From contig CAWAIF010000003.1 in NCBI GenBank assembly GCA_963782055.1, positions 2,496,001-2,560,000 of the forward strand: 64,000 bases of DNA, given 5' to 3'. How positions within the stretch are numbered: position 1 is the first letter of the stretch; each line of letters starts with the position of its first letter. This DNA comes from an uncultured delta proteobacterium. GTDB taxonomy: Bacteria > Myxococcota_A > Polyangia > Polyangiales > Polyangiaceae. The translations under genes were made by a program, and so were the position numbers. The notes beneath the pieces were generated by a model, which ran no database searches, was not told where the DNA came from, and saw only the letters and a program-made list of their open reading frames with translations. This document shows positions 21,655 to 46,603 of the stretch, piece by piece.

Positions 21655-22301
21655 TGGTAGATCCTTACACCTTGGCCGCCCTACGGCGGCGGTTGGAGTC
21701 AAGACCCCCTCTCAAACCGTGCGTGCGGATTTCCCGCACACGGCTTACCGGTGGTCTCTCGTGACGCGGCATTACGCGGCCTCCGGGTAGCGGATGGTCC
21801 CGCGCAGGCGGTGGAGCCCGAAGCCTTCGACGAAGTAGTCGCGGGTCCAGCGCTCGGCTTGTCCGGCCTTGAGCTTCGAGCCGGCCCGTTTCAGGCGCAG
21901 CGCTCGAAGCCGTTCGTACACGTACTCGTCGAGTCGGTTGAACTTCACGTCGGCGTTCCCGGTGCGAAAGTACTCGCCCCAGCCACGCAGCACGGGGTTG
22001 AGCTGCGCGACGACGTCGCGCAGGTCCGCGTGGCAGCGTGATCGCGGGGTGAGGTCCCTCACGCGCTGCCGGATCCGCTTCATCGCGCGAGCCGATGGCC
22101 AGCGCTGGAGGAAGTACACGCGTTTGCGCGACCTCTCCCAGATGGACCCGCTCAAGCGTTTCCGCAGGTGGCAGCCGAGGAAGTCGAACCCCTTCTTACC
22201 CCAGGAGAGGTCCAGCTTCCTCGTCTTGTCCGGGTGCAGCTCGAGCCCGAGTCGCGTCATCACGTGCTTCACGCGAAGCTCGGCCTCGTCGACGTCACGC
22301 T
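21653..22301 (-). mobile_element. Group II intron, 3' half (IEP RT6/7-maturase, domains V and VI)
   Basis: LGLELHPDKT, FDFLG, LNPVLRGWGEYF. Domain V AAGCCGTGTGCGGGAAATCCGCACGCACGGTTT; domain VI ends CTACCAAT at 21653. Confidence 0.92.
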
Positions 22302-22370
22302 TGATGGTTCCGGAAAATCTGAGGGCACCCATTCCGGAAAATCTGAGGGCTCCCGGAAGAGAGGCACCTC

Positions 22371-23927
22371 ATGATGGAATCCCCGGTGATGGCTCACAGG
22401 CGGGTGCATGCGGAGGAGATGCTGCCTCTGCTCAAGCGCCACGAAATCCAGGTCTTGCTTCACGCGGGGCACACCCGCAAGGACGTTGCCGAGCGCACGG
22501 GTACGTCGGTCGCGACTGTTGACCGCGTCAGGCGCGAGGAGGAGGTGGCGGTCGTCGATGACGCCGCGGCGCGTGTGGGTCGTGGCATCGGCCGGCCGTC
22601 GAAAGCCACGCCCTTCGCCGAGCGCGTTCGCACGTGGCTCGCCGAGGAGCCCGAGCTTCCGACCCAGGAGCTGCTGCGTCGCGCGACGCAGGCGGGGTAC
22701 GCGGGACACAAGTCGGCCTTCTACGCCCTGGTCGCCGGCGTCCGCCCACCCCGCGCCGCCCCCGTCGTGCGCTTCGAGGGCCTGCCCGGCGAGTTCTCGC
22801 AGCACGACTTCGGCCACGTCGACGTCACGTTCGTCGGCGGCCGCAAGAAGCGGTTCCACTTCTTCGCCTCGCGCCTGAAGTACTCGCGCTTCGTCGCCGT
22901 CTCCCTCGTCGACAACGAGCGCGTCGAGACGGTTGTGCGCTGCCTGGCGCGCCACTTCGTCGCCTTCGGCGGGTTGCCCCTGATGGCCGTCTTCGACCGC
23001 CCCAGGACCATCGTGAAGAAGTCCGGCAAGGGGCGCGACGTCGAGGAGTTCAACGCCACCTTCGCGCAGGCCATCGTGGACATCGGCGTCGGCGTGGAGA
23101 TGTGCGCGCCGCGCAGCGGCAACCAGAAGGGCTCGGTCGAGCGGCTCGTCGGCTGGGTGAAGAGCTCCTTCTTCAAGCACCGCAAGTTCCAGGACGAAGC
23201 CAATCTCGAGGCGCAGCTCGCCGCGTGGCAGGTCGAGATCAACACCAGGACGCCTTCGCGCGCCACCGGCGAGATTCCGGAAACACGGCGCCAGGAGGAG
23301 CTCGCGCGCCTGCGCCCCGTCAAGGTCTTTCCGGAAAAGCTCGCCCTGCGCGTCCCCGTCTTCGTGGGCCCCACCGCCGAGGTGATGTTCGAGGGCGTGC
23401 CGTACTCGATGCCGCCGCAGGCGACGCATGTCGCCGGCACCCTCTTCCTCTACGAGGAGCGCCTGCACATCGTCGCCGGCCGCTTCGAGGCGTGGCACCG
23501 CCGAAGGCGCAAGGGCGAGCCACCCGCGCCGCTGCCAGAGCATCGCGCCGCCAAGATCGCCGCCGTCCACGGCAAGCGCGCCAAGCTCTACGAGAAGCGC
23601 CAGCAGCTGCTCAACCTCGGCTCCGATGCCCTCGCGCTGCTCACCGAGATCACCCACCGCGAGCCGAAGCTCGCCAGCCGTCGCGTCGAGGACCTCTACG
23701 CGCTGCTCGAGCAGTACGGTGACGACGTCTTGCGCGACGCGATGGGGCGCGCGGTCCGCTCCGGCACCTTGTCCGTCGCCGGCGTCAAGCACGCTCTGCA
23801 GGCGTTGAGCGCCCGGAGGCGCGGAGGCGCACGCCTCCGTGCCGCAGTGGCGCAACCGCGCGGGCGACAGCCTCACCAGCTCGGCTTGCCCTTGGGCCGC
23901 GCGGGCTCGAAGGGAGGTGCCTCGTGA
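22371..23927 (+). CDS. istA: IS21 transposase IstA
   Basis: Same protein as 8885-10441 except one residue. Confidence 0.95.
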   Translation: MMESPVMAHRRVHAEEMLPLLKRHEIQVLLHAGHTRKDVAERTGTSVATVDRVRREEEVAVVDDAAARVGRGIGRPSKATPFAERVRTWLAEEPELPTQELLRRATQAGYAGHKSAFYALVAGVRPPRAAPVVRFEGLPGEFSQHDFGHVDVTFVGGRKKRFHFFASRLKYSRFVAVSLVDNERVETVVRCLARHFVAFGGLPLMAVFDRPRTIVKKSGKGRDVEEFNATFAQAIVDIGVGVEMCAPRSGNQKGSVERLVGWVKSSFFKHRKFQDEANLEAQLAAWQVEINTRTPSRATGEIPETRRQEELARLRPVKVFPEKLALRVPVFVGPTAEVMFEGVPYSMPPQATHVAGTLFLYEERLHIVAGRFEAWHRRRRKGEPPAPLPEHRAAKIAAVHGKRAKLYEKRQQLLNLGSDALALLTEITHREPKLASRRVEDLYALLEQYGDDVLRDAMGRAVRSGTLSVAGVKHALQALSARRRGGARLRAAVAQPRGRQPHQLGLPLGRAGSKGGAS

Positions 23928-24736
23928 GCTCCGACCTCGACCCGCTGCTCAAGCGCCTGCACCTCGCCAACGCGCGCCGCACCTGGCGCGACCTCGTCCA
24001 GCGCGCCGAGAAGGAAGACTGGTCGTACGACGCGCTGCTCCTCACGCTCTTCTCGGAGGAGGTCGCGCATCGCCGCGGCACGCGGCTCGCTCGCGCCGTC
24101 CGCGCCGCCGGCTTTCCCTTCCTGCGCACCATCGAGGAGTTCGACTTCACCTACCAGTCGAGCCTGCGCCTCACGACCATCGGCTCGCTGCTCACCCCGG
24201 ACTTCGTCACCGAAGGTCATTCGGTCATCCTCGAGGGCAAGCCTGGCCGCGGCAAGACGCACCTCGCCGTCGCCATCGCGTACCGCGCGATGCAGAACGG
24301 CTTCGATGCGCTCTTCACGACCGCGGCGGAGCTCATCGACGACCTGTCCGCCGCCAGTCGTGACGGCACCATGCGCGACACGCTCGGGCGCTACGTCAAG
24401 CCTCACGTCCTGGTGGTCGACGAGGTCGGTTACCTTGGCTACGGCGACGATGCCGCCAACGTGCTCTACCACGTCGTCAACGACCGACACATCCGCCGCC
24501 GCGCCATGGTCTTCACCACCAACAAGCACCCGAAGCGCTGGGGGGCCGTCCTGCACGACGATGACCTCGCCGAGGCCATCGTCGATCGAATCCTCGAGCA
24601 CGGTCGGCTGCTACGTCTCGACGGGCCATCGCTCAGGACGAAGCACCTTCCCGAGGACGAACTCCGGCTCGATGACCGAGACACAGGGGCTGTCAGATTT
24701 TCTGGAAAACAGTCCTCAGAATTTCCGGAACGCACA
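23924..24736 (+). CDS. istB: IS21 helper ATPase IstB (reads through the element end to 25363)
   Basis: Walker A/B as in copy 1. Confidence 0.95.
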
Positions 24737-25535
24737 ACAGACCTACCTCATCGCGTTCATCGACGACGCCACACGGATCGTACCTCACGCGGCCTTCACG
24801 TTCTCCGAGGGGACGATCAGCTACCTCTCGGTGCTCGAGCAGGCCGTGCGTCGCCGCGGCATCCCCAAGCGACTCTACGTCGACAACGGCTCGGCGTTCC
24901 GCTCCAAGCAGCTCGCGATCGTGTGCGCGAAGCTCGGCATCGCGCTCATCCACGCCAAGCCGTACAAGCCCCAGGGCAAGGGGAAGATGGAGCGATGGTT
25001 CCGTACCACGCGCATGCAGCTCTTGCCGCTGCTCCACTCCGCGCAGCTCGTCTCCCTCGACGCGATGAATCGCGCGCTCGCCGCGTGGGTCGAGGGCGAG
25101 TACCACCACGCGCCGCACCGCGGCCTCGGCGACGAGACCCCCGCCGACAAGTGGGCCCGCACCAGCGACGGCGTCCGAATGCCCGCCGCCGACCTCGGCG
25201 ACCACTTCCTCGCCGAGCAGAAGAGGAGGGTGCAGAAGGACCGCACCGTCACCCTCGACGGCGTTGCCTTCGAGGTCGACGCCGCGCTCGTCGGCGAGCG
25301 CGTCACGCTCCGCTTCGACCCGGCGCGCAAGCCCGACAAGCGCAACGTCGAGGTCTGGCATGAGGGCCGCCGCATCGAGATCGCTCGCCGCGTCGATGTC
25401 CTCGCCAACTGCTTCGTCAAGCGCAACTCCGCCACCAGAAGCCTGGAGATCCCCACCGGAGCTGGCGTCGAGCTCCACGAGGGCCTGGCCATGCGCGAGC
25501 TCGTCGACGACGACGCCGACAAGGAGCTGTTCTGA
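24737..25535 (+). pseudogene. DDE transposase 3' half with Mu-transposase C-terminal domain
   Basis: IAFIDDATR, LYVDNGSAF, PQGKGKMERWF, RRVQKDRTVTLDG. Confidence 0.9.
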
Positions 25536-26332
25536 TGTACCGCAAGCACTTCGCGCTCACGCGCCACCCCTTCGACAAAGACCTCGCGGCCGACGACCTC
25601 TTCGAGTCCGCCTCGCTCGCCGAGCTCGGCGCGCGTCTGCGCCATCTCGTCGACATGCGCGGCATCGGCCTCGTCACCGGCGACAGCGGCTCCGGCAAGA
25701 CGACGACGTGCCGCCACCTGGTCGCCGGCCTGCACACCGGCCTCTACCGCGTGCTCTACGTCTCGATGACCACGGGCAACGTCATGGACCTCTACAAGTC
25801 CATCGCCTGGGAGCTCGGCCTGCCGACCGAGCGCAATCGCGCTGCGCTCTTCCGGCAGATACGCGGCGAGGTCTCGCGCCTCTGCGCCGAAAACCGCCTG
25901 CGCCCCGTGCTCATCGTCGACGAGGCCCACCACCTGCGCACCGAGCTGCTCGAGGACCTGCGCCTGCTCACCAACTACGCCATGGACTCCGAGAACCGCC
26001 TCACCGTCGTGCTCGTCGGCCATCCCGAGCTGCGCCGCCGCATGAGCATGGCAGCCCTCGACGCCCTCGCGCAGCGCGTCGTCGTGCGCGCCCACGTCCG
26101 CGGCCTCACGCGCGAGGAGATGGGCCCCTACCTCGCCCATCGCCTCCATCTCGCCGGCACCGACGTCCCGCTCTTCGAGCCGCCGACCGTCGAGGCGATC
26201 TACCAGGCGTCGAGCGGCTTGCCGCGCAAGGCCAACGGCCTCGCCCATCACGCACTCTTCGCCGCCGCCATCGCCAAGGCGAAGTCCGTCACCACCGAGC
26301 ATGTCCAGGCGGCGATGCAGGAGGTCGCGTAG
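25535..26332 (+). CDS. ExeA/TniB-like AAA ATPase of the transposon
   Basis: MYRKHFALTRHPF, GDSGSGKT, LIVDEAHHL, LVGHPEL, SGLPRKAN. Confidence 0.92.
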   Translation: MYRKHFALTRHPFDKDLAADDLFESASLAELGARLRHLVDMRGIGLVTGDSGSGKTTTCRHLVAGLHTGLYRVLYVSMTTGNVMDLYKSIAWELGLPTERNRAALFRQIRGEVSRLCAENRLRPVLIVDEAHHLRTELLEDLRLLTNYAMDSENRLTVVLVGHPELRRRMSMAALDALAQRVVVRAHVRGLTREEMGPYLAHRLHLAGTDVPLFEPPTVEAIYQASSGLPRKANGLAHHALFAAAIAKAKSVTTEHVQAAMQEVA

Positions 26333-26513
26333 AGCCACCCGCACCGGTCACCGACGACGTCGGGGGGCTCGCGCTCGTACCGCGGTGCCCCGGCGTCTCG
26401 CTCTTGTCCCACGGCTCCCACCGCGGGAAGCGATCACGCAGACCGAGAGCGCAGCCCGGTGGCGTCACGACGGAGCGTGGGGCGCTGGCGGTGGAAGAGC
26501 GTGGGAGACAACA

Positions 26514-27046
26514 GCGAGTCGGCACCCTGGCCACCAAGCTCGTCGCCGAGGCCTGCCGCCGTCACGGCATCGCGCCCAGGCAGCTCACGCTGCACGCGGA
26601 CCCGGGCGCCGCGATGCGGAGCAAGCCGCTTGTCGCCTTGCTCGCGCAGCTCGACGTCGAGCGCACGCACTCGCGCCCCCACGTCTCCAACGACAACCCC
26701 TTCATCGAATCGCACTTCAAGACGCTCAAGTACGACCATCACCACAGCGCCCTGGCGTGGATGACGCACGGGCGCGCCCAGGCGCTGCTCGACCGCCGCG
26801 CGCACGTCCTCGCGGACGCCCGCGCCGCGCATCCCGAGCGCTTCCCGCACGGGCCGCCCGCGGCTCCGACGCTGCCCGGCGCCGTGTGGATCAACCCGCC
26901 CAAGGCGGACCGCGTGGCCGCCCCCGAGCCCGAGCTCGGAACCACGCTCATCCTGCCCACGCGACCTGCGCCCATCCCCACTTCGACACTCGTCTCCCTA
27001 CGCTAGACTCCGCGACAGGCTGTCTCACACTCGTTGACAATTTCCG
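26514..27046 (+). pseudogene. IS3 orfB 3' part (degenerate) and right end
   Basis: LTLHADPG, SRPHVSNDNPFIESHFKTLKY, HPERF...VWINPP. Has a frameshift at about 26520 and internal deletions; IR at 27018-27046. Confidence 0.85.
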
Positions 27047-27236
27047 GATGTGGACACCGTCCGGCCCGGACCGGGACGTCGACGATGGCCGTCCCTTCGT
27101 CGAGGCGAACGGTCCTACTCCCGAGGGAGTATGGACAGGCCGGGCAGAGCATGGTGCAATCGGAGTGCGGATGTTGCTGGTAGCCTGACTTCCGTCTGTG
27201 GCCTGAGCCCTGACAACCAAGGAACGGGGAATCGTG

Positions 27237-30200
27237 ATGTCGCCTCGCCTCGCCTCGCCTCGCCTCGCCTCGCCTCGCCTCGCCTCGCCTCGCCTCGCCT
27301 CGCCTCGCCTCGCCTCGCCTCGCCTTCGTCGTGGTGTTGGTGTCGGTGTCACTGCTGACGTGGGGTGCCTCATGTTCGCCACCTCCGCCGGCGCCCTCGC
27401 CGGCATCTAGCACGGTGCTCTTCGCGGAGAAGAGCATGGCGATCGGGGCTTCCAGTACCGTCGCGGGTGACGTCACCGTCAGGCAGATCGAGCCGCTTCC
27501 GGCGCTCGCGACCCTCGTGTCGGTGGATGGGGGCGCGCCACCTCCGTCGTCCGTCCCGCAGCTCCTCATCGGAGCGTACTCGCACGTCGCCACGGATGCG
27601 GCCTGCAATACAACCGGGACCGTCTCGTCGAACTCAATGGAGCTCGGCGCCGGTGCGTGCGCGGGGGACGTCCGCACCAATCAACTCAGAAATCCGAGCG
27701 GCACGGTCGGCTCGCATGCGCCCTTTCCAACCAAGCCGCTCGACCCTCTCCCGTTCGCCGGCATGCCGACGGGCGGAGCACCGGTCACGGTGGTCGCCTC
27801 GTCATCGGCGTCGCTCACCCCGGGTGCTTACGGGGATTCGACGGTCGGCCAGGGTGGCACGCTGACGCTGGCTGCCGGGAGCTACTCCTTCGGTGCCATG
27901 CACCTCGCCGGGTGGGCGACGCTGACCACGTCGGCGAGCGGTGTCTCCATCGTGGCATCGAGCCTGACGGTTGGGCAGGTCGCGACCGTGACGCCGCAGA
28001 GCGGGCTTCACGCCGGCGCTCTCCAGATCCAGCTTGCCGGCGCGGCGACCTTCGCGAAAGGGGCCTCGGTCAAGGCGCTCGTCGCCGCGCCGCACGGCGA
28101 CATGACCTTCGGTGCCGGCGTGACGGCGGCCGGAGCGTTCGCCGCGTTCACCATCGAGACGAAGGACCACGTGAGCGTAACGCTCGACAGCGGCTTTCCG
28201 CCTCCCGCGCACGGCACACAACAGCTCTCCGGGTACTACGGCCAGCAGCTCAACGGCGCCTTCGGCGCGGTCTCCCCCGTGGAGCGGGACAAGGTCTTCG
28301 CGCTCTCCATCGGCCTGCCCATTCCCAACCTGGCGGCGCTCCACGCCTTCATCGACGACGTCTCGAACCCCCACAGCCCGAACTACCGGCATTTCATCAC
28401 GCCGGCGGCCTTCAAGACATCGTTCGGCGCGAGCGACGCCGACTACCACGCGCTCGAGCGATGGGCCGTCGCGCACGGCCTGACCATCGAGCGGACCTAC
28501 TCGAACAACCTCCTCTTGACCGTGACCGGCACGGCCGCCGTGATCGAGCGGGCGCTCTACGTGAACCTGATGTACCGGAAGGGAGGGCCGTTTGCGCCAG
28601 GCTTCCTCGCGGTGGACCGCGAGCCGTCCCTCAACCTTGGGCCGGCGGTTCTCTGGATCACCGGCTTCACCGACTCGCGCGTTCCGCAAGCGGGCCTCTG
28701 CAACCCCGTGAATCCGGTGCCCGGCGGCGTGTCGGGTGGTCTGGGGTTCCTCTTTTCCGCGAGCGACGTACGTCAAGCGTACCTGGGCAACGGAGCCTGT
28801 CAGCCGCTCACCGGTGTGGGTCAGACCATCGGCATCCTTCAGCTCGAGCCGACTAACCTGGGCGACCGGGCCGCCTTTATCGCGTCACAACCGGCGGGGA
28901 GCGCCATCAACTTCACCGGAAACGTCTCCTTCGTCACGAACGGCAGCGCGGGCGAGCTCAGCTCCCCGAGTGGTGAAGCGGCGCTTGATCTGGAAGCGGT
29001 GTCGGCCATGGCGCCCGCCGCGAACGTCAAGATCTTCCAGACGCCCGTTGGCATCACCAGCCACGCCGACGACGCGTATCACGAGATGGCGACGGACGGG
29101 ACGCTGACGGTCGGGACGAGCTCATGGAACTTCGGCAGAAGCGACAACTCGCAGCAAGCCTTGACCCAGATGGCAGCGGAGGGGATCAGCTTCTTCAACT
29201 CGTCGGGCGATTACGGCGACGTCGGCGATCCGCAGTCGAATCAGGACATGGACGACCAGACGCTCGTGGGCGGCACGTCGATCAGCGGCAGCGGAGTGAG
29301 GACGCTCTTCAACCCCGCCACGAACAAGCTCTTCCTCAGCTACACGCTGCCGTACTGGGCGGGCGAGACCACATGGAATGGCGGGTGTGCCGGCACCGTG
29401 GACAATGTGGCGACCTTGCTCGACGCGACCAACATCCAGAAGGACATCACCGGCGGCGGGGTGATGAATGGGCAGGCCTTCTCCACGTTGGGGCCGCCCG
29501 CGTGCTACTGCTTCCCATCCCCGTCCTGCTGCGGCAGCGGCGTGCCGCTCCCAGGCTACCAGAAGGGCGTCAAGATGAGTCCGGTGGTGCGCGTCCCGGG
29601 CGGGCTTGCGTCCCCTGCCGGCGGCAACGGAGGCTCGACCTCCTTTCGCGACTTTCCCGACGTGGCCGCCGCCGCGGCCAGTTTCCAGACCGTCTTCACG
29701 CAGCCCCAGTGCGCGACGTTGCCGGCGTGTCCGCCTGGCGTCTTTTCCCCGCGCAGTTGCTGCCCGATCATCAACGGCGCTTCCGTGTGCTGTATCGTCG
29801 CGCAGAGCGGCACGAGCCTCTCCGCGCCGCTATGGGCCGGCTTTGCGGCGCTGGTCAACGAGCAGTCCAAGGCCAACGGCAACCCCAACAAGAGTGGCTT
29901 CCTCAACGACACGATCTACCCCATCGGTCTCACCCGGGGCCTGCCCGGCGCCGGCGACCTCTACACACCGGCGTTCCACGACATCGCCGACGGCGTGTTC
30001 AACCAGGATCCCCAGCCCAACACGCTCGGCCTCGGCTTCCCCGCCGTCGGGGGCTACGATCTCGCGACCGGGTGGGGTTCGCCGTCCTGCGCGCTCCTGC
30101 GGCTGCTGAGCAGCGCCAGTCCGCTCACGCCGCAGGCGTTCTCGCAGGTCTACGCGCACATCGAGAGCGGCCCGGACGGCCTGAACGATGCGACCAGCGT

Positions 30201-31047
30201 CGACCTCGTGGTCAACACGACGGACCCGAACCTCGCTCCGCCGCCCTTTCACGTGAAGCTGCAGGGCGAGGCGGGCTGGGGTGACGGCACCACGCACGAC
30301 CTCGACGCCCTCCCTCTGCCGGCGGCTCTCAACCCGGCCCAGATCGCGAGCGTCACCGTCACCCTGTTCGAGAACGGCCAGGGCGGCTCGCACGCCGACA
30401 ACTGGGACCTCGGCGGCATACAGGTCCGGCTCGGCACGGCGCAGCCGGGCGCGGCGTGGGGGTGCCTCGTCGACGTGAGCGGCAACGGGAGCTGCGATGC
30501 GAACCAGCCGAGCTGTCACTCGGGCACCCTCGGCAACACGAGCGACACGGGCGCCGCGCGGCTCAGCGAGACGGTGAGCGACAGCGGCCAGGGGCCGTCG
30601 GCGACGTTCCTCATTGCGAACGAGGGCTGCGCAGCGTGGAACCCGGGGCCGGCGCAGCAGCCCTTCGACTCGATCGAGGTCGTGGTGGACACCTCCGACG
30701 ACGACCTCGGGAGCGGCGACCAGCTCGATTTCCGCGTCTTCGACAGCACGAACACGCAGAAGGCCTTCCAGCCTCTCCATAACTCCGGGGCGGCGAAGTT
30801 CGACAACAACACGGAGCACTCAGTTCGCGTCGCGGTGCCGCAGCTCCCGTCTTCCGCGGTGGATCACCTCACCCTCGCGCTCTCCAACGAGGGGAACGAC
30901 GAGTGGCACGTGAACGGCATCTCCATCTTCGGCCGCCGCATCATCGCGGGCGGCCAGGACACGTGCCTCTACCGCTCGACGGGGAAGATCGTCATGAACA
31001 GCGGGCTTTCCACCTTGACCCTGTCGCGCGGGAGCGGGTGCCCCTGA
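27237..31047 (+). CDS. S53 (sedolisin/kumamolisin) serine protease lipoprotein, multidomain; ATG out of frame at the current repeat number
   Basis: Pro-domain DVSNPHSPNYRHF; catalytic EAALD, SSGDYG and GTSLSAP; GYDLATGWGSP. N-terminal beta-helix-like region and C-terminal repeats with DNWDL/DEWHV; lipobox WGASC. Confidence 0.9.
27241..27325 (+). repeat. Pentanucleotide microsatellite (CGCCT)x17 directly after ATG-T
   Basis: 17 perfect copies starting 4 nt after the A of ATG at 27237. Confidence 0.97.
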
Positions 31048-31057
31048 GGGCGCGGCG

Positions 31058-31426
31058 ATGAAGGCCTCACCGGTCGGCTCTCGCCTGGTCACGGCCGCGG
31101 TCGTCTCCGCGCTGCTCGGATGCGGCGCCCGGACCGAGCTGGAGAGCCCGGAACTCGCCGCGACCGCGACGGCGGATGCCGGAGCGGACGGCGCCTCCGA
31201 TGCAGGTGCTGGCGTGGACGGTAGTGGTGGTGACGGAGGCGGTGGGCCCATCTACTGCGGGTACTATGTCGGCCCGGTGGACTACTGCCCCGACGGCTGG
31301 GCCATGCGCTGCTCGCCGGGACGGGAGTGCCTCTACAATATTGGGCACGATGGCCTCTGGGGGTGCTGCACCCCAGAGAACAACTGCCTCTACGGAAGCC
31401 CCGGCGATGGGTACACTTGCCCATAG
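31058..31426 (+). CDS. Small Cys-rich lipoprotein (family A, copy 1)
   Basis: Lipobox LLGC-GARTEL, DAG linker, 8 Cys in the C-terminal domain. Confidence 0.8.
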   Translation: MKASPVGSRLVTAAVVSALLGCGARTELESPELAATATADAGADGASDAGAGVDGSGGDGGGGPIYCGYYVGPVDYCPDGWAMRCSPGRECLYNIGHDGLWGCCTPENNCLYGSPGDGYTCP

Positions 31427-31506
31427 CGCATTGTGATGAGCCAGCGGCCCATCGATAATCGTGCCACTCGCGCAGTGCGGACGCGCACGTGTGATAGCCG
31501 ATCCCT

Positions 31507-32083
31507 TCACCCTCGCGCTCTCCAACGAGGGGAACGACGAGTAGCACGTGAACGGCATCTCCATCTTCGGCCGCCGCATCATCGCGGGCGGCCAGGACAC
31601 GTGCCTCTACCGCTCGACGCGGAAGATCGTCATGAACAGCGGGCTTTCCACCTTGACCCTGTCGCGCGGGAGCGGGTGCCCCTGAGGGGACGGCGATGAA
31701 GGCCTCACCGGTCGGCTCTCGCCTGGTCACGGCCGCGGTCGTCTCGGCGCTGCTCGGATGCGGCGCCCGGACCGAGCTGGAGAGCCCGGAGGTCACCGCG
31801 ACACCGCGACGGCGGACGCCGGAGCGGACGGCGCCTCCGATGCGGCTGCCGGCGTCGACGGCGGTGGTGATGCCGAGGGGGGCGGCCCCATCTACTGCGG
31901 CTACTACGTTGGTCCGGTGGACTACTGCCCCGACGGCTGGGCTATGCGCTGTCCGCCCGGCTCGCAGTGCCTCTTCGATGTGGGGCATAATGATCTGTGG
32001 GGCTGCTGCGATGTAAGCGGGCGTGTGTACGGCAACCCCGATAATCCATACCAGACCTGCCCGTAGCACATCGTGATGAGCCA
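31507..32083 (+). repeat. Tandem duplicate of 30869-31443 (protease 3' end plus Cys-rich lipoprotein)
   Basis: Near-identical at offset 638. The protease fragment has TGG changed to TAG; similarity ends at GTGATGAGCCA. Confidence 0.92.
31696..32066 (+). pseudogene. Small Cys-rich lipoprotein (family A, copy 2), +2 frameshift near 31800
   Basis: Same N-terminus as 31058; Cys domain continues in another frame with a diverged C-terminus. Confidence 0.75.
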
Positions 32084-33891: not shown

Positions 33892-34398
33892 GCGCCGATG
33901 AGCTTGCGCACGCCTGCCCGATGGCCCATGCTCGCGTGAGAATGTACTGAGGTGGCGGCCCGCGGGCGAGCTCGCGACGCCGCGGCAAGCCAGGCGAGCG
34001 AGATCCTCCAGCCGACCAGGGAGCGCCCTGCCAGTGGCCGCCAGGAGGGAAATGCTGCGAGGGGACGGACTGCCCGTGGACCGGCAGGGCCGCGGCCAGT
34101 ACTTCCACGCACCTTCGTGGCATGCAGTGCTGGTCGACGGCGCGCCCTCCGTGACTGGGGGAGCGCCTACTCGGTCGGCGACGCCGTGCTGGTCGTGGCG
34201 CTCGGCGCACCAGGAGGGTTGCTTTCCCACGACGTCCGCCGGTACTTCCCGCCCTGAATCCGCGACTCGCAACGAGGGTGCTCTGGCGCGCGTGACGAGC
34301 CACGACGAGGTCACGCCGATTTTGCGACGGAGTGACCTCTTCTCGGGCATCATAGACGTGGACCGACTGACCAGGAGGGAAGGGATGGCAGCCGACTT

Positions 34399-34433
<35 letters not shown>

Positions 34434-34508
34434 GGTGAGCGCGTGACCGCTCGGCGCGCGTCGGGAGCGTTCGCGACGCACCGTGCCCGGGCGCTCCACC
34501 CGAGCATC

Positions 34509-35125
34509 GTGGACGAGCCGATCCCGGTGCTCTGGTCGAGGACCACCTCCTCCTCGGGCGCGCGCTGAAGCGGCGCCTCTCGAGCTTCGCGGACGTGGCC
34601 ACGAGCGTCTGCACGACGGCGACTGCCGCGATCCGCGAGATCGAGCGGCGTGCCTTCGCGCTGATGATCGTCGACCTGGCGCTCGAGAGGGGCGCCGACG
34701 GGCTGCCCGTCCTCGATCGTGCTCGGGCCTTGCAGCCGGCAGCACCGGTGATCGTCCACAGCGGGCATCGCACGGCCTTCGGGGCAAAGGTCGCGGGACG
34801 CGGCGTGCCCTTCCACGACAAGCCGATGCCCGAGGAGGAGCTGCGCCGCGTACTCCTCTCCGCCGTCGAGGAATGGCTCCTCGCCAAGGGGCGAGTGGTC
34901 GATCTGGTCCACGCCATCGCCGAGGCTTCGGGCGTGGCACCGATGCCCCGTGTCGTGCTCTTTCACCTGATGCGGGGTCGCGGGGGCGACGAGATCGCGC
35001 TGCTCCTTGGCGTGACCGCGGAGACGGTGCGCTCGCACGTCGCGGCGCTGTACGAACGGCTCGCCGTGCACTCGATCGACCAGCTCATCCTGCGTACGGT
35101 CGCGCCGGTCCTCCGGCGTGCGTGA
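34509..35125 (+). CDS. Response regulator with LuxR-type HTH (frameshift near 34533)
   Basis: VL(L)VEDH, LMIVDLAL..GADGL, KP, and EIALLLGVTAETVRSHVAALYERL. Confidence 0.75.
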
Positions 35126-40493: not shown

Positions 40494-42201
40494 ATGATGT
40501 GTGGAAACAGGGGGGGGGCGTCGCACACGTCCTCTATCGCGCTACGGTGCGCGCTTCGTCCTGGTCAGCTTGATCGGGCTGGCTGCGGCGACAGGTAGCA
40601 TGGCATGCTCGTCGTCGGCCCCGCCGGAGACCGTGGGTTCCACGTCGAGCGCGGTCACGGTGGCACCCAACACTCCGGTGGAGACTGACTACGGCTACGA
40701 CACCACGAGCGTCGCCGTGTACAGCGGGGCGTGGATCAGCGTGTGCGGGGGCGGCGGTGCCTGTGGCCCCTTCGAGATCGTGGGCATGCAGGACGACGTC
40801 CCCGCGGACTGGAGCCAGAGCTTCCGGAACCTCGACGCTTACGCGACGTCGGAGGAGGCTCCCAACACGATCCACACGTCGGCCGAGTGGGGCCTGCCGT
40901 CGGAGGCGCCCTCCTACCCGGACACCTTCACAGGGTACACCGGCCATCCGAACATGGTGAGCGTCGACGGCTACAACTTCGACTACGTCGGGCTCGGAGC
41001 GACCGGCACCGGCTACCTGAACACCGAGGTGACCGTCCACGGCTTCCGCGAGGATCAGACCCACTTCCTCACGACGACGCTCAACCCGGCCATCTATCCC
41101 TTCCTCTCGACGAGCGGCAGCCCCGGCGGCTACCCGACGAACACTATCACCGACGTGTCGGTCGCCGCGGATCCCGCTTCCGGTCTCGTCTGGGTGCTCT
41201 GGACGATCCCGCAGTACTGCGACCCCGCCTTCGGGTGCGGGCCCGACGCGCGGACCCTGCTGACCAACTACCACTTTGACGCCGCGGGGGGCTTCGTTCA
41301 CGGCCCGACGTGGAGCCTGACGTACACCTCGCCCACAGGAGGCACCTTGCCGGTCGCGCCGGTCGGGCTGACGCGCATGGCGTTGAAGTCGATGGGCGGT
41401 GGGCCGCCCCTGCTGTACATCGGGTGGCCCGATGAGCCCGACATCACCTGGACCTGCAACCCCTCGTACCCGCTCAACTGGCACGTCACCACGGTCCAGC
41501 CCTCGACCGATCCCTCGGGGCACTCCCAGCCGCCCGTCGTCACCGACCGGATCGTCCTGAGCGATCCCTACCACCAGAACTGCGCCAACGTGGCGTCGCC
41601 CAACCCTGGGTACACCTCCGGACGGCCGGCGATGTTCTATGACGCGCAGTCGGACGAGGTCTGGCTCCTGGCGAACAAGACCCAGTACTACAACGGGTAC
41701 AACTACGGCATGCGCGTGGTCTTCGCGTTCGACGACGGGAACTACCAGGGCCCGATCACTGGGTACTACCAGTCGTGCGCCACCCCTCGTCGGATCCTGC
41801 CCGACGGCACCGGCGACGGCATCCAGTGTTTCCAGTGGGATCCCGGGGCGACGGTGTCCCCTGTGCCCGAGCAGCAGGGCAACATCGCGATCTACACGTG
41901 GCGAGAGGCGGCGCCGGCGGACGGCTACAAGGTGAACTACTGGGGTTCCTCCTTCACTCCGCTGCTGCCGCTCAACCAGACCTTCTTCAAGGTGGCCCAG
42001 TTTGCACAGCCCGGCATCGAGGTGCCCTGGTTCCAGACCAACCCCATCGACTACGCGGCCATGCCGTGGGGAAGGTACGACGGGATCGCCGCGGACCCCG
42101 CGACCGGTACCTTCTTCGCTGCCTGGACGGACAACCGGGCGGACGCGCCGAGCAACCGGCGCTCGAACGTATGGACCACCACCATCCAGTCGCCATGGTG
42201 A
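40494..42201 (+). CDS. Large exported lipoprotein, BNR/propeller-like; G9 tract near the 5' end
   Basis: Lipobox SMAC; WGRYDGIA...FFAAWTDNR C-terminus. The SD-led ATG at 40494 is out of frame by one G (tract 40510-40518); an in-frame GTG lies at 40501. Confidence 0.75.
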
Positions 42202-44598: not shown

Positions 44599-46603
44599 AT
44601 GGGCAAGACTCGGCGAATCGCCATGAGCATGGTGGCTACGGCATCGGCGCTTGCGTTCGCGAGGTGCAGCCCGGCCCCCCCCCCCCAACAAGCCGCCGTT
44701 CGTGTTCGAGATCCGGGGCCCCGGCGCCGACGCGACGGGCGGAGGTAGCGCCGGAGAGGTCGTGCTCTTCCACTACTCAGGACCGAAGTCGGCCGGCTTC
44801 GAGGAGCTGAGCTACGCCTTCGGCAGCCAGGACTTCGGGGCGGCACCCTTCGCGTCGCTTCAGGGCGCCAACCAGGCGTCCTTCCCCATCCGCGCCATCC
44901 TCGACTCGGCCGACAATCCCACCTCCCTGCCGGCCATCCCGCTCTCCCCCAAGCCGTACGACGTCACGGTGTTCGCCTTCGATCCGGAGCGTCGCTTCGA
45001 GGATCTCGGTCACGCCCTCGACGACGCGACGTGGAAGTCGCTGACGCGCACGGCCGGTCTCGTGACGTTGCCCGACGGGCTCGGGCTGCCTTCGACGCTC
45101 GTCCCGTTCGGGTCGACCCCGACCGACCTTCGCGTCACGCCGGCGGCGTTCAGCGAGGCGCAGGGGCCGCTCGCGGGCGAGGCGGCGCTGCCGTTCGGCG
45201 CGGGGAGTGTCAAGGCGGCGCGGCTCGTGCAGGACGGACTGTGCTCGCAGTTCGTCCCCTACTCCACCTTCTTCCAGCCGATCGATGCCGGAATCCGCCA
45301 GGCGCTGCTCACGGGTTACGGGTCGGCCTGTTACAAGAGCGACGGCACCAGGACGGACGGGTACGGCCAGATTTCCGCCGAGAACATGGTGAGCTTCCTG
45401 GGCCACGAACCGTTGGTTCCTTCGAGCGTCCGAGGCGGGTTCCTGCTCAATCTCGACGTGACGGTGAAGAGCGCCGCGTTCCCTCTCCAGTTCGTGAGCG
45501 GATCCGATCAGACCTGCCGGATCCAGACCACGGCCGGGTACGAGCCGTACCTCGACAGCTACGGCGTGCTGAACGTACAGACGGGCGTGGGGGTCTACCA
45601 GCAGAAGAACTTCGCCGGCGACTACCTTCCTGGCCTCGAGCAGCACTCCGATACCCTGGCTTGTCGGGGCTTGACCATCGCGCTGCCCTTCCCGCCGTAC
45701 ACGGCAACGTTCGACGGCTTCTCGGCGATCTTCCAGCAGGCACTGCAGAACGACGTTCCCTCCCAGGTGCGAGCACGGGCGGAGGCGAGTCAGTATTACC
45801 CGCCAGTGTGGGACACGAGCTTCGACGACGACGCGACATGGTATTGCGATCCCACGGAGTACGATTCTGCTTACACGTGTCCGCCTCAAACCGAGGACCG
45901 GTGTGGGACTGTTGCGGACATCGTTGGAGGGGCGGCCAAGGCAAGCGCCATTGCCTTCGGGATGGACGCTGCGGCCGCCGAGACACTTCGCCTCAGTATC
46001 GTGGCGAAGGATGGAAACTCGCAACGGCTTCTGCGCTGGCGGTGCGTGGGCCGTCCCGCCACCGCTGGTTCACCGAATCCGCAGGCGTGCGTCGACCCGC
46101 ACAAGGGTCGGTGCGAGTTCATCGTGCCCATCAAGAGGCTGAATACTCGGCCTGACGGGATCGAGGCGGTGTTCTTCGATCGCGAGGACGATGCCAACAA
46201 CGCCGCGCTCGCCATCTTCTTCGCCTCCTTCTATGACGCGAAGACGGACTCGACCGACGTGACGAGCACGGCGTATCGAGCGCTGTGCTCCCTCGGGCGT
46301 CCGAGCGTCGACAATCCGAGCGTCGACACCCGTCGGTTCGAGCCCCGGCCGTTTGCGAAGCTCGCCGGAAAGCCGTCGATCTGCGATCAGACTCTGGGTC
46401 TCGGTCCTCCTCCCGAGTGCGCCCTGGATTGTGGGGATCTGGCGAGTCCTACGGCCTGCTCGACGAACGCCGACTGTACCGGCCTGTACATGCAGGGTCG
46501 TAGTTGCCCTGGAGGAGCGTGTGCATGCGTCAACCGCGTGTGTAGCCCCCGATGCTTCACGGCGCCGCCACCACGCGCGGCGTGTGGTCCAAGCCCGATG
46601 TGA
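44599..46603 (+). CDS. Large exported protein with a Cys-rich C-terminus; signal peptide separated from the body by a C12 tract frameshift
   Basis: SD GGAGGTG then ATG 44599 gives MGKTRRIAMSMVATASALAFARCS. C11 instead of C12 (44675-44686) joins it to the 650-aa ORF. Confidence 0.7.

Follow-up and report, generated by a model that had tools for sequence, protein, structure and literature searches.

Is the long pentanucleotide repeat that directly follows the ATG of a sedolisin protease gene an on/off switch in this apparently environmental myxobacterium? The gene lies in the window, by which we mean the whole 64,000-nucleotide stretch analyzed here, and the host genome (G000), whose kin suggest a myxobacterium, comprises 7.58 Mb in 3 contigs with 71.6% GC. 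The elements on which the question turns are the following, in window coordinates:

27220-27229, forward strand: Shine-Dalgarno (SD)-like sequence AGGAACGGGG; anti-SD duplex energy -5.7 for ATG 27237 and 0 for GTG 27331 and 27334.
27237-27239, forward strand: ATG, proposed true start codon; homologs in relatives have an SD and ATG, a basic n-region, an h-region and a Cys.
27240-27325, forward strand: (TCGCC)17.2 pentanucleotide repeat, the putative frame switch; codes for (SPRLA)n whatever the frame and is the source of an Arg-containing n-region.
27326-27375, forward strand: predicted h-region, then a lipobox with its Cys (TGT 27373-27375) in last place; pattern-based.
27237-27410, forward strand: predicted OFF-state product at n=17, 57 aa, with stop codon TAG at 27408-27410.
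27331-31047, forward strand: unbroken ORF of 1238 codons, ending in GSGCP and a stop codon, with C-terminal beta domains; equal in length to paralogs and homologs.

The tract reads T + (CGCCT)17, that is (TCGCC)17.2, and is perfect (100% matches by TRF). Of the perfect repeats that our census of G000 lists (periods 1, 2, 4, 5, 7 and 8), none exceeds it in length, and it is therefore not a product of chance. Its 5-bp unit, which is not a multiple of 3, is placed between the proposed start and the gene body, and the distance from ATG 27237 to GTG 27331 is 94 nt, or 9+5x17. Varying n in silico, we found that ATG 27237 joins the 1238-codon ORF only at n=0, 3, 6 and so on to 18 and 21, and that at the assembled n=17 the sedolisin ORF is out of frame and the reading from ATG ends after 57 aa. 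The original prediction had described the purine-rich SD, the ATG, the T and the 17 CGCCT units, had argued that n must be a multiple of 3 and that n=17 is OFF, and had given the product of an n=3 allele. Each of these points is borne out, with an SD of modest duplex energy; the n=3 product is indeed MSPRLAFVVVLVSVSLLTWGASC. The lipoprotein-type leader proposed there is also recovered by pattern match, with an n-region, an h-region and a lipobox Cys. The lipobox (…WGASC), judged by pattern and by eye, has a non-canonical Gly at position -3, and a Cys stands at a like place in homologs; we would expect this Cys to be lipidated. Because (TCGCC)n reads SPRLA in all frames, export should survive a change in length. 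RNA folding at n=3, 6, 17 and 18 gave similar SD pairing throughout, with no sign of a length-dependent RNA structural switch, and no sigma-70 promoter or terminator was found within 26950-27340.

Downstream of the repeat, the gene encodes a predicted sedolisin with these parts:

27403-28206, forward strand: N-terminal all-beta domain, with DUF7305/ice-binding-like adhesive type as a lead (atlas feature score 0.92; beta-rich in the model).
28270-28572, forward strand: pro-kumamolisin activation domain PF09286 (E 3.6e-22).
28975-29817, forward strand: predicted catalytic residues Glu549 (28975), Asp553 (28987), oxyanion Asp627 (29209) and Ser829 (29815), numbered from GTG 27331.

The ORF matches kumamolisin by sequence (E 3e-9) and contains the Glu-x3-Asp, SGD and GTS catalytic motifs. 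In an alignment of 12 sequences, Glu549, Asp553 and Asp627 are invariant and Ser829 is at least 90% conserved, the exception being P0006 (L162, in G006), a congener's sedolisin that has no 5' repeat and is frameshifted just before the catalytic Ser. A structure model built from 38 sequences (pLDDT 77.6) retrieved TPP1, kumamolisin or sedolisin at the first 16 Foldseek ranks shown, with E-values down to 1e-22. PF09286, the catalytic residues and the fold thus all agree with the sedolisin (S53) identity given in the original prediction, and the gene is intact. We assigned the catalytic roles after kumamolisin, and proteolysis at acid pH is a prediction. The protein shares PF09286, the Glu-Asp-Ser triad, the oxyanion Asp and the fold with the sedolisins of MEROPS S53 (kumamolisin 1t1e, Pseudomonas sedolisin and TPP1), and differs from the solved structures, with which it has 18-23% identity, in its lipoprotein leader, in an extra beta domain at the N-terminus and in the beta domains of its C-terminus. 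Its first ~270 residues are similar to DUF7305/ice-binding-like adhesive domains, a paralog matching DUF7305 at E 2e-4, below cut-off, and the C-terminal domains are PLAT-like as a weak lead (atlas 0.84-0.85). The end of the protein is like those of its paralogs and homologs, so the gene is whole apart from the repeat.

Whether the repeat can control this gene depends on where translation starts. One further element bears on this:

27426-27438, forward strand: internal GGAG and ATG 27436, a possible signal-less alternative start (SD -6.6).

From sequence comparison, we propose that ATG 27237 is the real start and that the frame depends on n. We searched 383 family genomes at the protein level and obtained matches in 17; 30 of the 35 matching loci were fetched, 27 of them from other genomes, and the 5' end was visible in 23 of these 27 (L230, L235, L244 and L245 were left out). 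The 23 homologs mostly begin with an SD and ATG, a basic n-region, a hydrophobic stretch and a Cys, and no 4-, 5- or 7-mer repeat is present at the visible start of any of the 23. Since these N-termini carry an export leader, the sedolisin family is exported; a start at GTG 27331 would leave out the n-region and one at ATG 27436 the signal. A start at GTG 27331 independent of the repeat, which the original prediction had set against its own reading, is disfavored, as that codon has no SD and no basic n-region.

If translation did begin at ATG 27436 or GTG 27331, the repeat would be bypassed, and might tune a leader or toggle between an exported and a cytoplasmic form. The GGAG before ATG 27436 stands at a distance of 6-7 nt, the OFF-frame stop lies 25 nt upstream of this ATG and would allow reinitiation, and the database protein P0001 begins there. 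Leader-type repeat loci are also present in G000 (C2:528948, C3:6009783 and C3:1548319) and in a response-regulator family of relatives. Against this, the GGAG lies in codons for an Ala-Glu pair that is conserved within a beta-strand, and most homologs have Leu, Val or Ile in place of the Met. The ATG 27436 form would also have no signal peptide, yet the family is exported. We consider a bypass of the repeat very unlikely; as a rival to be kept in mind, ATG 27436 could yield a cytoplasmic by-product.

In G000 as a whole, repeats are non-randomly placed and biased toward particular gene classes. The genome holds 16 perfect repeats whose period is 4, 5 or 7 and whose copy number is 5 or more, and 15 of them begin no more than 15 nt after an ATG, compared with 0.235 at random positions (P 5e-9). 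With an SD also required, the figures are 12 of 14 4/5-mers versus 0.037. The full layout of SD, ATG, repeat, h-region, Cys and long ORF is present in 12 of the 16 by eye and in 10 by regex; relative to the 17.6% of 5904 crudely predicted genes that this lipobox regex calls lipoprotein-like, the enrichment has P 8e-7 (12) and 8e-5 (10). Half of the 12 panel lipoproteins are serine proteases (3 S53, 1 S8 subtilase and 2 trypsin-like), and the other 6 gave no Pfam family. All 3 sedolisin paralogs in G000 bear a repeat, with two different units among them. Of the other 3 ATG-proximal repeats, one belongs to a REC-LuxR gene in the window (34385) and one to a leader ORF; the third is ambiguous. C3:1186716 was considered as a fused lipoprotein and dropped as ambiguous, its paralog starting at an internal ATG.

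The panel units are TCGCC, GCAG, AGCA, GCAGG, GGCTG, GCAC and a heptamer. Their lengths are not divisible by 3, so each unit yields a single repeating peptide whatever the frame (SPRLA, AGRQ, SKQA, AGQGR, LGWAG), and most of these peptides contain Arg or Lys, which would suit an n-region. With shorter tracts included, a tectonin lipoprotein joins these loci, as do two of the leader type; a single added unit at C2:528948 would put the leader's stop over the ATG of the following gene. Among 69 scanned homopolymer or AG tracts, 7 fall in the 5' coding ends of lipoprotein-like genes, 2 of them in the window. A general mutator was rejected because mutS and mutL are intact in G000, and mutability is therefore local. 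These similarly placed repeats lend strong support to the contingency-locus reading of the original prediction; the switch action that it also asserted stands less firmly, with an SD at ATG 27436 as well.

Two further arrangements were seen in G000. At C3:6819428, 6827484 and 6829682, three modules of 150-300 nt, each consisting of upstream sequence, SD, ATG and (AGCA)n, lie no more than 10 kb apart before different genes. They are 77-90% alike with n = 6.8, 3 and 6.8, suggesting portable switch modules; upstream modules 71-90% alike within G000 carry differing n. At C3:2240913 and C3:6337946, poly-C tracts of 11 and 12 stand right after a TTGACG hexamer, upstream of near-identical paralogous genes for 2250-aa lipoproteins, and are candidates for switches of the promoter-spacer type.

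Repeats of this kind also occur in relatives. Of 251 family genomes, 18 contain (GCAG)5.5 and 46 contain GCDRG-type 5-mer tracts, and ATG-(TCGCC)3.4 was not found in the 150 family genomes searched for it. We examined 41 loci from relatives, fetched without requiring an ATG: 20 with GCAG, 1 with TCGCC and 20 with a 5-mer (GCGAG, GCTGG or GCAGG). Among the matches listed, the GCAG loci are all 20 outside G000 (4 more matches exist) and the 5-mer loci are 20 picked ones (89 more exist). Nine of the 41 have the signal-peptide layout, including, in another genus, a trypsin-like lipoprotein with the same SPRLA repeat (L210); 3 have response-regulator-type starts, and 29 lie elsewhere or are cut by contig ends. 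With L006 and L008 these nine make 11 signal-peptide loci, L030 and L028, which share their flanks, being counted once. Both states are found across genomes: 4 of the 11 are in frame, as a free frame would give, and 5 of 24 when G000 and relatives are pooled (P 0.14). In-frame copies include long tracts, at C3:2208778 (n=9), L006 (n=8) and L202 (n=7). Homologous genes bear different units or tracts in different genomes, namely (TCGCC)8 in L006 and (GCAG)6 in C3:4430945, (GCAG)11 in L015 and (GCAGG)4 in C3:1310367, and (TCGCC)4 in L008 and G11 in C3:2275391, which indicates repeated independent gain. The congeners hold 0-2 such loci with the unit patterns tried, so that the size of the panel is special to G000; three of the five congeners searched in this way (G001, G002 and G005) have no such repeat.

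In wider searches, a GTDB scan returned 5 loci, of which 2 have the lipoprotein layout, 1 is a three-copy tract in a TPR-like gene and 2 are not followed by a long ORF. A metagenome scan gave 0 matches for CGTG-ATG-(TCGCC)3, and at least 117 stretches for ATG..(GCAG)4, mostly eukaryote-like microsatellites with no SD, leaving three useful regulator loci. Response-regulator-type starts with (GCAG)7-15 after the ATG were observed in several genomes (L178, L179, L190, L090, L128 and also L135). Most of these have an alternative GTG or TTG start as well; L178, L190, L090 and L128 are 48-74% alike, L090 and L190 being in frame and L128 and L178 out of frame. We found no close ortholog of this regulator in G000, the best match being 35%. 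In fragmented assemblies, the 5-mer repeats L005, L204 and L207 are located at contig ends or no more than 40 nt from them, and short-read genomes may under-report such repeats.

Within G000, a single one of the 12 panel loci is in frame (1 of 13 with C3:1310367), below one third (P 0.04-0.05), and second one-base breaks affect 1 of the 12 panel genes, the REC-LuxR gene and one repeat-less trypsin paralog. The low ON share and the few second breaks count against phase variation, and fit young pseudogenes or assembly error. Also to be set against it are the SD at ATG 27237, which is among the weakest of the repeat-locus set, the 0 matches in the metagenome scan for the ATG-(TCGCC) context, the 32 of 41 loci from relatives that fall outside signal-peptide starts, and the three congeners with no such repeat. 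If the cause were gene loss, tolerated n-region repeats would have expanded and frameshifted dispensable island genes more or less permanently, and the sedolisin locus would be a young pseudogene. The 11 OFF loci and the second breaks speak for this, as do the cluster of IS and intron remnants that adjoins the sedolisin gene and the homologs elsewhere that work with no repeat. However, no break interrupts the 1137-1260 codons of the focal ORF and its two paralogs, which retain their catalytic residues; long repeats are nearly absent from gene interiors, which would be equally tolerant under relaxed selection; and in-frame copies with long tracts exist. We therefore regard loss of these genes as an unlikely account.

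Assembly error would leave the mechanism in place and change the state. Here the assembled n would be wrong, or would be that of the majority allele, and the gene would be ON at n=18 or 15. One-base breaks elsewhere suggest residual assembly indels, and a consensus conceals mixtures, but of the 210 G/C tracts of 7-9 nt flanked by coding-like sequence, 192 preserve the frame, showing that the assembly is not indel-ridden, and an error of a whole 5-nt unit would be a different and rarer event. This account is in our estimate highly improbable. We considered 3 DNA runs of one study, 1 of which matches the stretch (share 0.25), and no RNA run was listed with a match. The near-identical DNA comes from one soil metagenome run and is possibly not independent of the assembly. 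Over 27326-31100, we obtained from this run (X1) 4 contigs, 151-267 nt long and differing at 0-2 positions each, all inside the gene and none near the start; runs X2 and X3 gave short unrelated pieces only.

The reading that we favor as probably correct is slipped-strand translational phase variation of the Opa type, used throughout the large genome of this myxobacterium for its secreted proteases and lipoproteins. Gain or loss of 5-bp units by strand slippage at replication would shift ATG 27237 into or out of frame with the sedolisin lipoprotein, so that one repeat length in three would be ON, and at any ON length the fixed h-region and lipobox would sit behind a basic n-region. The assembled n=17 would be OFF and one unit away from ON. 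Switching would presumably be reversible.

Other features of the window may bear on the same biology:

27116-27131: perfect palindrome TACTCCC-N2-GGGAGTA, a candidate regulator operator, 106 nt before ATG 27237.
34385-35125, forward strand: REC-LuxR response regulator, the second repeat locus in the window; SD-ATG at 34385 and (GCAC)8.8 at 34399-34433.
40494-42201, forward strand: gene for a lipoprotein, its ATG followed by a G9 tract (40510-40518); out of frame in the assembly.
44599-46603, forward strand: lipoprotein-like gene with C12 (44675-44686) just past the Cys codon; out of frame as assembled.

The palindrome has 11 exact copies in G000 versus 0 for a reversed control. The sites lie ~100 nt upstream of starts, often those of large lipoproteins, and two other repeat-bearing lipoprotein genes have one upstream; we take the palindrome to resemble a NarL/LuxR-type operator (NarL-type 7-2-7 sites). 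The REC-LuxR gene has a further one-base break near 34530, and may be either a switchable regulator or a broken gene. The gene at 44599-46603 is homologous (33%) to C3:6855710, the gene with the heptamer repeat. Upstream of the sedolisin gene, 21772-27040 is a nested mobile-element cluster. It holds a group II intron maturase fragment, transposases of the integrase-core type together with their AAA ATPase partners, and a remnant that ends ~200 nt before ATG 27237. Downstream, a tandem duplication of ~640 nt (30862-31443 and 31500-32083, 83-97% alike) comprises the 3' end of the protease and a small downstream gene for a Cys-rich lipoprotein.

The closest known parallel is Neisseria opa, where the sequence coding for the leader peptide contains repeats of the pentamer CTCTT (PMC5354566, in part). 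Shared with opa are a pentamer in the signal-peptide coding region, a unit number that sets the frame, many independent loci and exported products. The opa repeat codes for the hydrophobic core of the leader, whereas here it codes for the n-region directly after the ATG. The opa genes form one paralogous adhesin family; the targets here are unrelated lipoproteins and serine proteases, with at least 6 different units, in a 7.6-Mb, 72% GC environmental host with mutS and mutL. Switching has been demonstrated for opa, and in the present case we infer it from sequence.

A panel of about a dozen long non-triplet repeats marking candidate switchable surface functions also recalls Haemophilus influenzae, where tetranucleotide contingency loci comprised 12 putative genes in the first genome (part of PMC11868660). 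That organism is a small host-adapted pathogen; ours has a large free-living genome, and secreted proteases as targets. In Haemophilus, the targets are genes for the synthesis of LPS and for iron uptake. Streptococcus gallolyticus Pil1, with GCAGA repeats in a leader peptide in the portion consulted (PMC3894217), offers a model for the three leader/uORF-type loci of G000, whereas the focal repeat sits inside the gene's own signal peptide. Among myxobacteria, the yellow/tan phase variation of Myxococcus xanthus is likewise a phenotypic switch, at the colony level and transcriptional, for which the available text names no repeat mechanism (PMC4880591). Enrichment of repeats at N-termini has been argued to signal phase variation (PMC3315296, in part), environmental SSR switches have been predicted for mod genes, usually one per genome (excerpt of PMC5909438), and long simple repeats are said to track host dependence (PMC4060949 and PMC5909438, both in excerpt). 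The available part of a 2025 review calls soil bacteria a gap in the knowledge of phase variation (PMC11868660), and our searches of the non-subscription literature turned up no account of phase variation through repeats in a myxobacterium. The mechanism is known, membership in the Opa-type class is provisional, and the host, the scale and the protease targets are what is notable.

The focal locus would then belong to a panel in which at least 12 oligonucleotide repeats and ~7 G/C tracts serve as switches for lipoproteins, secreted serine proteases among them. Such a panel would give clonal cells differing sets of surface proteases, and its benefit may be bet-hedging on costly or phage-exposed surface enzymes. 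A broader idea, which we offer tentatively and hold to be possible rather than probable, is that Polyangiaceae-like soil myxobacteria repeatedly evolved a combinatorial "phasome" on exported proteases and lipoproteins, with at least 20 independent slipped-strand switches in G000. Their repeats would read as Arg/Lys-containing n-regions whatever the frame; some of the switches would have been transferred between genes as promoter-SD-ATG-repeat modules, and a palindromic operator common to them would add a further layer of control. If true, members of a clonal swarm would differ in their proteases, and mutation would divide the labor among them. Genes of this kind are mis-called in databases, P0001 and P0003 being stored with internal starts. 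A pathogen-sized switch panel aimed at secreted proteases in a large-genome environmental myxobacterium makes a concrete and cheaply testable case, and would bear on cheating and division of labor over shared enzymes.
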